From Armatimonadota bacterium (GTDB lineage Bacteria > Armatimonadota > HRBIN16), in contig OY781964.1 in NCBI GenBank assembly GCA_963677485.1, positions 1,568,001 through 1,632,000 on the forward strand: 64,000 bases of DNA. Direction: 5' to 3'. The notes under the pieces were generated by a model. That model was given only the letters and a program-made list of their open reading frames with translations. It searched no databases and was not told the origin of the DNA. The position numbers were made by a program, and so were the translations under genes. Positions 7,067-8,408 of this stretch are shown piece after piece (the first letter of the stretch is position 1; each line of letters opens with the position of its first letter).

Positions 7067-8173
7067 CTACGCTTCCCAGGGCAAGTAGCTCTTGCCAAAA
7101 TGACCGTAGTTGGTGGTCTTCTTGTAGATCGGCTTCAACAGACCGAGCCGCTCGATGATGGCAGCCGGGCGGAAGTCGAAGTTCGCACGTACAAACTCTT
7201 CAGCCGCAGCGGATTCGCCGGTACCGAAGGTATCTACCAGCACGCTGACCGGTTGAGCCTGCCCGATGGCATACGCCACCTGCAACTCAGCCTTCTTAGC
7301 CAGGCCGGCTTTGATGATCTCGCGGGCTACATACCTGCAGAAGTAAGCGGAGCTGCGGTCCACCTTGCTGGGGTCTTTGCCGCTGAACGCTCCACCGCCG
7401 TGCCGGGCTGCCCCACCGTAGGTGTCTACGATGATCTTGCGGCCGGTCACGCCGCAGTCGGCGGTAGGCCCGCCAAATTCAAAGCTGCCGCTGGGGTTGA
7501 CGATGAACTTAATGTCTGGCCGGAACCACTCACCCAGTGCGCGCGGGGCGATCACTGTGGCCACATACTGCTTGATATCGGCCTGAGCATATCCTGCAGT
7601 GTGCTGGGTACTCACCAACACCGTATCAACAAGCACCGGCACGATGCCTTCATAACGCACGCTCACCTGGGTCTTGCTATCGGGGCGCAGCCCAGTGTTT
7701 TTACCAGATTTTCGGTCGACAGCCAGCTCATAGGCCAGGTTGTGGGCCAGTTGGATGGGCAAAGGCATCAGCTCTGGGGTTTCATCGCTGGCGAAGCCAA
7801 ACATAATCCCTTGGTCACCGGCCCCCTGATCTAGCCCGTTGTCCACCGCGCTGTTGATCTCATGGCTCTGTTTTGACAGCAGATTGGTGATTTTCACATT
7901 ATCGGCACTGAAGGCTTCGGAGTTATCTATATATCCAATTTCGCGAATTGCGTCGCGAACTATTTGGTCGTATTCGAAATTGGCGTTGGTGCTGATCTCA
8001 CCGGCCAATATGACTTGACCCGATTTTGCGAGCACCTCACAGGCGACATGACTATGAGCATCTTGCTCAAGACATGCATCGAGGATGCTGTCTGCGATGG
8101 TATCGCATACCTTATCGGGGTGCCCTTCGGAGACAGACTCCGAAGAGAAGATCGAGTACTGTTTGTCCATCAT
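7067..8173 (-). CDS. metK: S-adenosylmethionine synthetase
   Basis: SESVSEGHPDK, GAGDQG, GRKIIVDTYGG, HGGGAFSGKDPSKVDRS. Confidence 0.98.
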   Translation of the reverse strand: MMDKQYSIFSSESVSEGHPDKVCDTIADSILDACLEQDAHSHVACEVLAKSGQVILAGEISTNANFEYDQIVRDAIREIGYIDNSEAFSADNVKITNLLSKQSHEINSAVDNGLDQGAGDQGIMFGFASDETPELMPLPIQLAHNLAYELAVDRKSGKNTGLRPDSKTQVSVRYEGIVPVLVDTVLVSTQHTAGYAQADIKQYVATVIAPRALGEWFRPDIKFIVNPSGSFEFGGPTADCGVTGRKIIVDTYGGAARHGGGAFSGKDPSKVDRSSAYFCRYVAREIIKAGLAKKAELQVAYAIGQAQPVSVLVDTFGTGESAAAEEFVRANFDFRPAAIIERLGLLKPIYKKTTNYGHFGKSYLPWEA

Positions 8174-8221
8174 TCAGGTTTCCTTTCGCCCATATGGGCC
8201 TTCACAGGGTCAAATTGACCC

Positions 8222-8258
8222 AAAAAAACGCCTATCGCCGTATCCAGAGGCGAAGGCG
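8222..8258 (-). terminator. Riboswitch-controlled intrinsic terminator in the metK leader
   Basis: CGCCU-UCGCC [UCUGGAUAC] GGCGA-U-AGGCG followed by U7. Confidence 0.85.
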
Positions 8259-8284
8259 CAGTCATGTCCACATTGAACACACAG

Positions 8285-8394
8285 GGAGACAATTTTTCGG
8301 AATAAGATCCCGCGTATCGAGGGGGGTTCCCCTCGGGCACCGTTGGCGTCTCCTGCCCGGTTGCCGGATTCCTATTGGAATCACTCTGGATACG
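8285..8394 (-). ncRNA. SAM riboswitch aptamer, SAM-I/IV-type
   Basis: Core AUCCAGAG...CGGCAACC...GGUGCC...GAU. P1 CGUAUC/GAUACG; P2 GAUUCC/GGAAUC; P4 GAGGGG/CCCCUC; P5 CGGGAU/AUUCCG; PK-2 pairs L3 GGAGAC with GUCUCC. Lies directly upstream of metK. Confidence 0.9.
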
Positions 8395-8399
8395 TGTAT

Positions 8400-8408
8400 A
8401 TTTTACCA
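8400..8408 (-). promoter_or_regulatory. Extended -10 promoter for the riboswitch-metK transcript
   Basis: TGgTAAAAT ending 5 nt before the first P1 base. Confidence 0.65.

Follow-up and report, generated by a model that had tools for sequence, protein, structure and literature searches.

The window, a 64-kb stretch of DNA from an Armatimonadota bacterium, carries on its minus strand metK (7067..8173), the gene for S-adenosylmethionine synthetase, which encodes all three S-AdoMet synthetase domains (PF00438, PF02772 and PF02773; E 4.5e-37 to 6.6e-61). Ahead of metK and on the same strand we recognised a candidate extended -10 element, TGgTAAAAT (8400..8408), a SAM-I/IV riboswitch aptamer (8282..8398), a spacer of about 25 nt, a terminator hairpin (8228..8259) with its U7 tract (8222..8228), and the Shine-Dalgarno (SD) sequence AAGGA (8185-8181). 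The -10 element, the U7 tract and the SD were read directly from the sequence. An earlier note on this DNA had described the leader, and all the coordinates it gave hold, on the minus strand.

The transcript is predicted to start 0-3 nt ahead of P1 of the aptamer. The earlier note had called the whole switch legible, promoter included. A candidate extended -10 can indeed be read, and the form TGnTA(A/T)AAT is also found upstream in the sister species L006 and L005, but the -35 is poor, and for this reason a consensus promoter scan made no call on the minus strand. Between the terminator and the SD, the minus strand of 8220-8191 holds two small hairpins (GGGUCAAUUUGACCC and GCCCAUAUGGGC) that are conserved in L006 but not in L005. 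Downstream of metK, after a gap of 48 nt, lies a gene for an N6/N4 DNA methyltransferase, type II/III-like (7018-5825, minus strand; PF01555, 2e-40; PADLOC MTase_II, 2.5e-45), followed by a 984-aa open reading frame (5652-2698, minus strand) for which neither Pfam nor PADLOC gave a match. The SAM riboswitch may also govern, by co-transcription, a methylase that consumes SAM and perhaps its partner.

The SAM-I/IV aptamer

Infernal matched the Rfam model RF01725 (SAM-I/IV) to 8398-8282 of the minus strand with 44.3 bits, only 3.2 bits over the gathering score of 41.1. The match spans the entire model (positions 1-99 of 99; E 6.2e-4 in the window and 1.1e-5 per genome). SAM-I/IV was the sole Rfam family to reach its gathering threshold in the 64 kb, and the 5.22-Mb genome holds a single copy. 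This is the family to which the earlier note had assigned the element, and the metK context agrees with it. Alignment to the consensus likewise confirmed an intact SAM-binding core, namely J1/2 (xAGAG), GGCAACC and CGGUGCC in P3, and the P1-P4 junction, and P1 retains the tandem A-U/U-A pairs of the SAM-I-type core. The identity of the bases that contact SAM, including the role of J1/2 in SAM recognition, is known from the SAM-I crystal structure. Relative to the RF01725 family, the window aptamer differs only by U-A for C-G in P1 and by C for A at the first position of J1/2. The element at 8398-8282 is an ordinary SAM-I/IV aptamer, predicted from its sequence to bind SAM.

P1 pairs CGUAUC (8394-8389) with GAUACG (8318-8313) and is followed on its 5' side by J1/2, CAGA (8388-8385). 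P2 (8366..8384) is a plain hairpin with the loop AAUA and has no internal loop, kink-turn or PK-1. Its 6 bp (8382-8377 with 8372-8367) are the bare helix described in the earlier note, to which we add a closing pair, G8384-C8366, with U8383 bulged. P3 (8336..8365) carries the loop L3, AGGAGAC, of which GGAGAC (8353-8348) forms the 5' strand of PK-2; it is complementary to GUCUCC (8290-8285), the 3' strand of PK-2, as had been proposed. P4 (8334-8319) and P5 (8312-8298) are both present and were placed, like the 3' strand of P1, by the Rfam alignment and the fold. Judged by eye, the two halves of the PK-2 complement vary together in relatives (GAAGAAC/GUUCUUC in L002, UUGGAGA/UCUCCAA in L012).

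A P2 without the internal loop of SAM-I and SAM-IV belongs to the SAM-I/IV consensus, as given by Weinberg et al. 2010 (PMC2864571), and the layout of PK-2 and P5 follows PMC6890682. The window copy resembles the 'SAM-I-IV-variant' of Weinberg et al. in its four-way junction, SAM-I-like core, extra 3' hairpin and pseudoknot between L3 and the 3' tail, and in preceding a gene of SAM metabolism. Its bare P2, P5 and PK-2 are defining traits of SAM-I/IV and nothing special to the window copy. What it adds to the SAM-I/IV aptamers as described is a defined expression platform.

The terminator and its loop

The hairpin at 8259-8228 is predicted to form an 11-bp stem with a bulged U8234 and a 9-nt loop (-16.8 kcal/mol) and runs into the U7 tract, so that a predicted intrinsic terminator lies between the aptamer and metK. 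A consensus terminator scan passed over this hairpin because its loop limit was 8 nt.

A 264-nt contig from a metatranscriptome library (X15), corresponding to 8119-8380 of the window with 7 differences, runs from P2 across the terminator into metK; its source may be RNA of a close strain that was read through the terminator, or DNA carried over into the library. Contigs from public runs came from strain-level relatives only, and both strands of the helix considered below were unchanged in them. If contig X15 is RNA, it offers a weak argument that the hairpin and U-tract are not used as a terminator, with control acting instead through translation or RNA stability, or with the 5'-3' pairing protecting a short RNA. 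That some related leaders have no terminator (L007, L008/L009/L011 and L003/L004, considered below) points the same way. Against this, an 11-bp G+C-rich stem leading directly into U7 is a classical intrinsic terminator, and the SD lies at least 40 nt downstream and is complementary to nothing in the switch. We consider it quite improbable that the hairpin serves for something other than termination.

The earlier note had also reported that the terminator loop region is a perfect complement of the first bases of the aptamer. This was borne out. The strand concerned, S5 (8384..8394), consists of the 5' strand of P1 (CGUAUC, 8394-8389) together with CAGA and the first base of P2 (8388-8384) and reads CGUAUCCAGAG. 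Its perfect 11-nt complement, CUCUGGAUACG (8249-8239), can now be placed more narrowly; it is exactly the 9-nt terminator loop (8248-8240) plus the closing pair C8249-G8239. For the 12-nt 5' segment, the longest complement in the 125-nt platform was 11 nt, a length that none of 20,000 dinucleotide shuffles reached. When any aptamer segment was allowed, an 11-nt complement arose in 2 of 2,000 shuffles. A second complementary site after the terminator is lacking in the window. The 5' half and loop of the terminator (8259-8239) also resemble an aptamer strand, the 3' strand of P4 with that of P1 (8324-8313, CCUC-GAUACG). The resemblance suggests, tentatively, a double exchange of strands or a duplication as the origin.

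The leader was folded as secondary structure only, with ligand and pseudoknot terms left out. The unconstrained minimum free energy (MFE) structure of 8398-8221 contained the 11-bp long-range helix with P2-P5 intact (-69.0 kcal/mol); when P1 was enforced, P1 and the full terminator formed (-65.7 kcal/mol). The 11-bp state was favoured in all three species of the genus, by -3.3 kcal/mol in the window species (L001), -1.2 in L006 and -4.1 in L005. As isolated duplexes, the 11-bp helix and P1 had energies of -17.3 and -5.3 kcal/mol. For transcripts ending from 8245 to 8221, the MFE always contained the growing 5'-strand helix and zero terminator pairs. For 3' ends from 8277 to 8246 the folds paired the 5' strand with neither partner, likely because PK-2 lies outside the model and GUCUCC is left free. 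A fold extended to 8215, in which the 5' strand pairs with the U-tract and GGGUC, was rejected as an artefact, since those bases lie within the polymerase, or behind it, when the decision is made. A mini-hairpin (GCG-CCUU-CGC) in the 5' strand of the terminator, present in the ON-state fold, is absent as a conserved feature from L005 and was dropped.

The leader thus offers a helix that would exclude both P1 and the terminator, being the MFE structure in the three species and backed by the covariation described below. The energy gap is small, so that ligand binding and tertiary contacts could plausibly flip the ranking by the few kcal/mol required. The 11-bp helix sequesters only the loop and the closing pair; the other 10 stem pairs keep free partners. 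That the helix would keep the entire terminator stem from forming is a steric argument. A strained pseudoknot with a 6-bp lower stem is sterically possible as well, and with ten stem pairs left free the antitermination may be partial.

Conservation and covariation of the long-range helix

RF01725 was present in all three species of the genus and in none of 15 genomes from the two other genera of the family; in the phylum it was found in 14 of 151 sampled genomes, 12 of them over the cut-off. L001 and L005 are the most distant pair within the genus. Between them the 11-nt site is identical at 11/11 positions, matching the constraint on P3 (29/30) and on the 3' strand of P1 (6/6), whereas P2 (9/18), P4 (11/17), P5 (10/15) and the spacer (14/26) are only about 50-67% identical. 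A terminator loop free of constraint would be expected to change as well where neighbouring stems diverge so far. The changes that do occur in the helix preserve pairing. In L006, C8394 to U gives U-G and C8240 to U gives G-U, and in L005, C8388 to U gives U-G. The upper stem of the terminator shows a compensatory change from G-C to A-U in L005.

Beyond the genus, the unbiased sample of the phylum gave a mixed picture. L002, L012 and L013 had no significant complement, and the complements in L007 and in L008/L009/L011 were not individually significant; the capture of the 5' strand is not a universal design in the family. In the clades without terminators (L007, L008/L009/L011 and L003/L004) the complement sits on anti-SD or start-codon hairpins. 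L008, L009 and L011 belong to one genus, and in them CGUGAUUU can pair with AAAUCAUG, in the start-codon region, or alternatively with AUCACG, the 5' strand of P1, a 6-nt match that is not significant alone.

With the P3 sequence of the window as a search pattern we collected 26 loci in species genomes, from MAGs titled Acidobacteriota, Armatimonadota, Actinomycetota, Eisenbacteria and Dormiibacterota, and 82 more in metagenomes. These yielded 107 usable leaders, 85 of them unique, of which 65 had a detectable terminator. The 5' strand, located by a P2-anchored rule, was nearly always GCAUCAGGAG. A run of at least 7 pairs (Watson-Crick plus G-U) between a leader's own 5' strand and its terminator hairpin occurred in 44 of the 65 unique terminator-bearing leaders, compared with a mean of 10.8 and a maximum of 17 leaders for shuffled 5' strands (200 rounds); counts of this kind overstate independence, the kin having been picked by identical P3 and terminator. 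The typical complement, CCUGAUG(C), lies in the upper 5' stem and loop of the terminator. The stems vary between leaders, and so do the flanks of the site in a profile conditioned on having the site. Runs were 5 or shorter in 17/65 leaders, and two single variants, GCAUG in L100 and GCAUUU in L050, have no compensating change in the loop. On the terminators of the window's genus, the genus's own S5 gave runs of 11, 12 and 12, and the common strand GCAUCAGGAG gave 5, 6 and 6. The longest and cleanest version of the pairing, at 11 bp, is that of the window's genus.

A covariation analysis, which the earlier note had named as a check, was run on a MAFFT alignment fitted to no structure. It comprised 64 leaders sharing the window P3 (62 distinct); L067 was left out, its pseudoknot and terminator having been mislocated in a 310-nt segment. 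The 5'-strand helix was paired in 81.8% of alignment cells, against 26-58% for controls with slid partners, and P1 was paired in 83.6%, with one pair changed on both sides. Three pairs of the 5'-strand helix were changed on both sides, in 10 cells, a result reached by none of 500 shuffles, and all three changes came essentially from one lineage, the window's genus. One is a C-G to U-A change within P1. The other two, A-U to C-G and G-C to A-U, lie within J1/2 and support the long-range helix specifically, because P1 has no partner there. The helix proposed in the earlier note is supported comparatively and thermodynamically; it is the MFE structure in all three species, its site is invariant where neutral stems have diverged, its changes preserve wobble pairs inside the genus and are compensatory when the genus is set against other leaders, and the design recurs in many leaders of several phyla.

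These data bear on the origin of the complement. If the 5' half of the terminator had been duplicated from the aptamer strand formed by P4-3' and P1-3', it would be complementary to the 5' strand by descent and might be a functionless relic. The likeness between the two segments, CCUC-GAUACG and CCUCUGGAUACG in the window and CGCUCGAUGC and CGCCUGAUGC in Acidobacteriota, speaks for such a history. A relic would hardly keep its 11/11 identity beside neutral stems at about 50-67%, and the loop motif has been retained across terminators with differing stems. The extra UG that extends the pairing into J1/2 is absent from the aptamer strand, and the compensatory changes are specific to J1/2. We regard a functionless complement as very unlikely.

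We also considered whether switching follows the canonical scheme known from textbooks for the S-box, in which the 5' arm of the terminator is taken up by the 3' strand of P1 or of PK-2; the 5' complement would then be merely incidental. In the window, no run of at least 7 was found between 8335-8298 (P4, the 3' strand of P1 and P5) and the terminator. Among 61 related leaders, runs of at least 7 were given by a 12-nt probe around the 3' strand of P1 in 5 and by the PK-2 segment in 8. The long segment of P4, P1-3' and P5 did so in 45/61, mostly through pairing of P4-3'/P1-3' with the 3' strand of the terminator, G-U included; these matches arise because the 5' half of the terminator resembles that aptamer strand. 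In acidobacterial leaders (L017, L042 and similar ones) the P4-3'/P1-3' strand can likewise pair with the terminator 3' strand, with G-U pairs (UCGCUCGA/UUGGGCGG), and strand exchange in many of them may be more complex. For the window, the lack of any such run and the low counts for the P1-3' and PK-2 probes make a canonical antiterminator highly improbable.

Many of the related leaders, including L010, L016, L038, L045, L063, L082, L093, L108 and others, carry a second perfect complement of the 5' strand of P1 and J1/2, the 10-nt CUCCUGAUGC, 40-60 nt past the terminator. It overlaps a hairpin (e.g. GAUGCAUGC...GCAUGCAUC) over the region from the SD to the start. In these leaders, one 5' strand looks like the agent of a dual transcriptional and translational control.

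It is conceivable that the pairing is real and yet no simple antiterminator. The loop might act as a decoy that competes with P1 and sets the SAM threshold or the folding kinetics, or form a partial pseudoknot beside the terminator stem, with read-through governed mainly by terminator strength or other factors. The 10 of 11 stem pairs that the helix leaves unsequestered would fit such a partial role. So would the folds of the related leaders, where with the full terminator present the 5'-strand helix was the MFE in only 10/65 and the terminator won in the remaining 55. The second, longer complement near the SD in many relatives suggests, moreover, that the strand has several jobs. Within the window's genus, however, the MFE is the 11-bp state even when the terminator is complete, a 9-nt loop cannot form the 11-bp duplex while its closing pair is formed, and the second site is absent from the window. 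We judge a merely partial role for the pairing to be unlikely here.

Proposed switching mechanism and related riboswitches

We propose that the leader is a SAM-I/IV riboswitch that probably turns metK off by intrinsic termination, and that the role of switching strand falls to J1/2 and the 5' strand of P1 rather than to the 3' strand of P1. The transcript would begin just ahead of P1, by a few bases. SAM binding would lock P1 and J1/2 in the aptamer; the 8259-8228 hairpin and U7 would then form and transcription would stop. When SAM is absent, J1/2 (CAGAG) would be free. The 5' portion of the terminator loop, CUCUG, would emerge ahead of the 3' half of the stem and dock on J1/2 as a toehold, and GGAUACG, a mimic of the 3' strand of P1, would then displace the real 3' strand. 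The resulting 11-bp helix would take the place of P1 in closing the junction, and the binding pocket would be destroyed. With its 9-nt loop stretched into a duplex, the terminator stem could not join its ends and RNA polymerase would read into metK. Through the contribution of J1/2 to SAM recognition, the toehold would be hidden by the ligand itself. The family, the anatomy, the complementarity with its conservation and covariation, and the energy ranking come from the analysis itself; we infer the binding of SAM, the order of these events and the lowering of termination through capture of the loop.

In textbook accounts of riboswitches, the switching sequence belongs to the 3' half of P1. In S-box (SAM-I) leaders such as B. 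subtilis yitJ and metI, SAM stabilises P1 and the terminator forms; in its absence, part of P1 is drawn into an alternative helix that prevents termination. The S-box antiterminator forms between the 3' strand of P1 and the 5' arm of the terminator stem. The platform proposed here shares with the S-box its OFF-switch logic and the use of one P1 strand by both P1 and the antiterminating helix. It would differ in pairing the 5' strand of P1 and J1/2 with the terminator loop, in having an invader that mimics the 3' strand of P1, in using the ligand-contacting junction as toehold, and in lacking the kink-turn and PK-1. A canonical S-box platform was not found in L001, which has no run of at least 7, and the P1-3' probe gave one in just 5 of the 61 related leaders. 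In cobalamin riboswitches a kissing loop joins L5 of the aptamer to L13 of the platform ('interdomain docking'); the ligand promotes this contact, by which the ribosome-binding site is hidden. There, as here, the loop of a platform hairpin pairs with the aptamer domain. In the window, by contrast, the ligand would prevent the loop contact, and the contact would unfold the terminator.

In the ZTP and pbuE adenine riboswitches, according to the review PMC10907184, a single-stranded toehold beside a helix nucleates the invader and the ligand blocks the exchange; the same review states that the switching sequence lies 'most commonly in the first helix'. The mechanism we propose is likewise a toehold-mediated strand exchange. 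The ZTP and pbuE invaders, as described there, pair with the 3'-side strand and displace its 5'-side partner, whereas in the window the 3' strand would be displaced and the invader lies inside the terminator loop.

In the literature searched we found no account of a SAM-I/IV expression platform, nor of a terminator loop capturing the 5' strand of P1, and no worked-out account of how SAM-IV and SAM-I/IV, with P5 and PK-2 lying behind the 3' strand of P1, relay their signal; the coverage excludes Trausch et al. 2014 and the text of Additional file 1 of Weinberg et al., which may bear on the point. A platform that uses the 5' strand, with a ligand-contacting toehold, appears to be a variant for which that literature gave no description, and its function is what we infer from sequence comparison.

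A broader proposal is evenly balanced in our judgement. It holds that there is a subgroup of SAM-I/IV with a ligand-gated toehold, in which the switching strand consists of the SAM-touching J1/2 and, right at the start of the mRNA, the 5' strand of P1, and decoys of the 3' strand of P1 reside in the terminator loop and often, a second time, in an anti-SD or start-codon hairpin. The leaders so classed come from MAGs labelled Acidobacteriota, Armatimonadota, Eisenbacteria and Dormiibacterota and from metagenomes. If the subgroup is real, one strand would gate first transcription and then translation. It would also account for signalling to the platform by aptamers in which P5 and PK-2 bury the 3' strand of P1.

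With its whole anatomy packed into about 175 nt between transcript start and U7, the switch in the window is a short and conserved system that yields sharp predictions. If confirmed, it would mean that a ligand can gate strand displacement by concealing the toehold itself, and it would provide a compact design principle for synthetic switches. If the proposal is wrong, the element is just another SAM-I/IV riboswitch before metK.

The genes that follow SAM-I/IV leaders are diverse. We compared 76 first open reading frames, many of them partial; 68 stood behind leaders with a P3 of the window type, and 8, all full-length, came from the phylum sample. The latter eight matched no Pfam family at E<=0.01, and the seven of them scanned with PADLOC matched no family there. 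Only 8 of the 76 were metK. The others were spread over at least 25 unrelated groups, of which the two largest had 15 and 14 members. The presence of a predicted SAM-OFF leader before many unknown genes suggests that these genes are induced when SAM falls.
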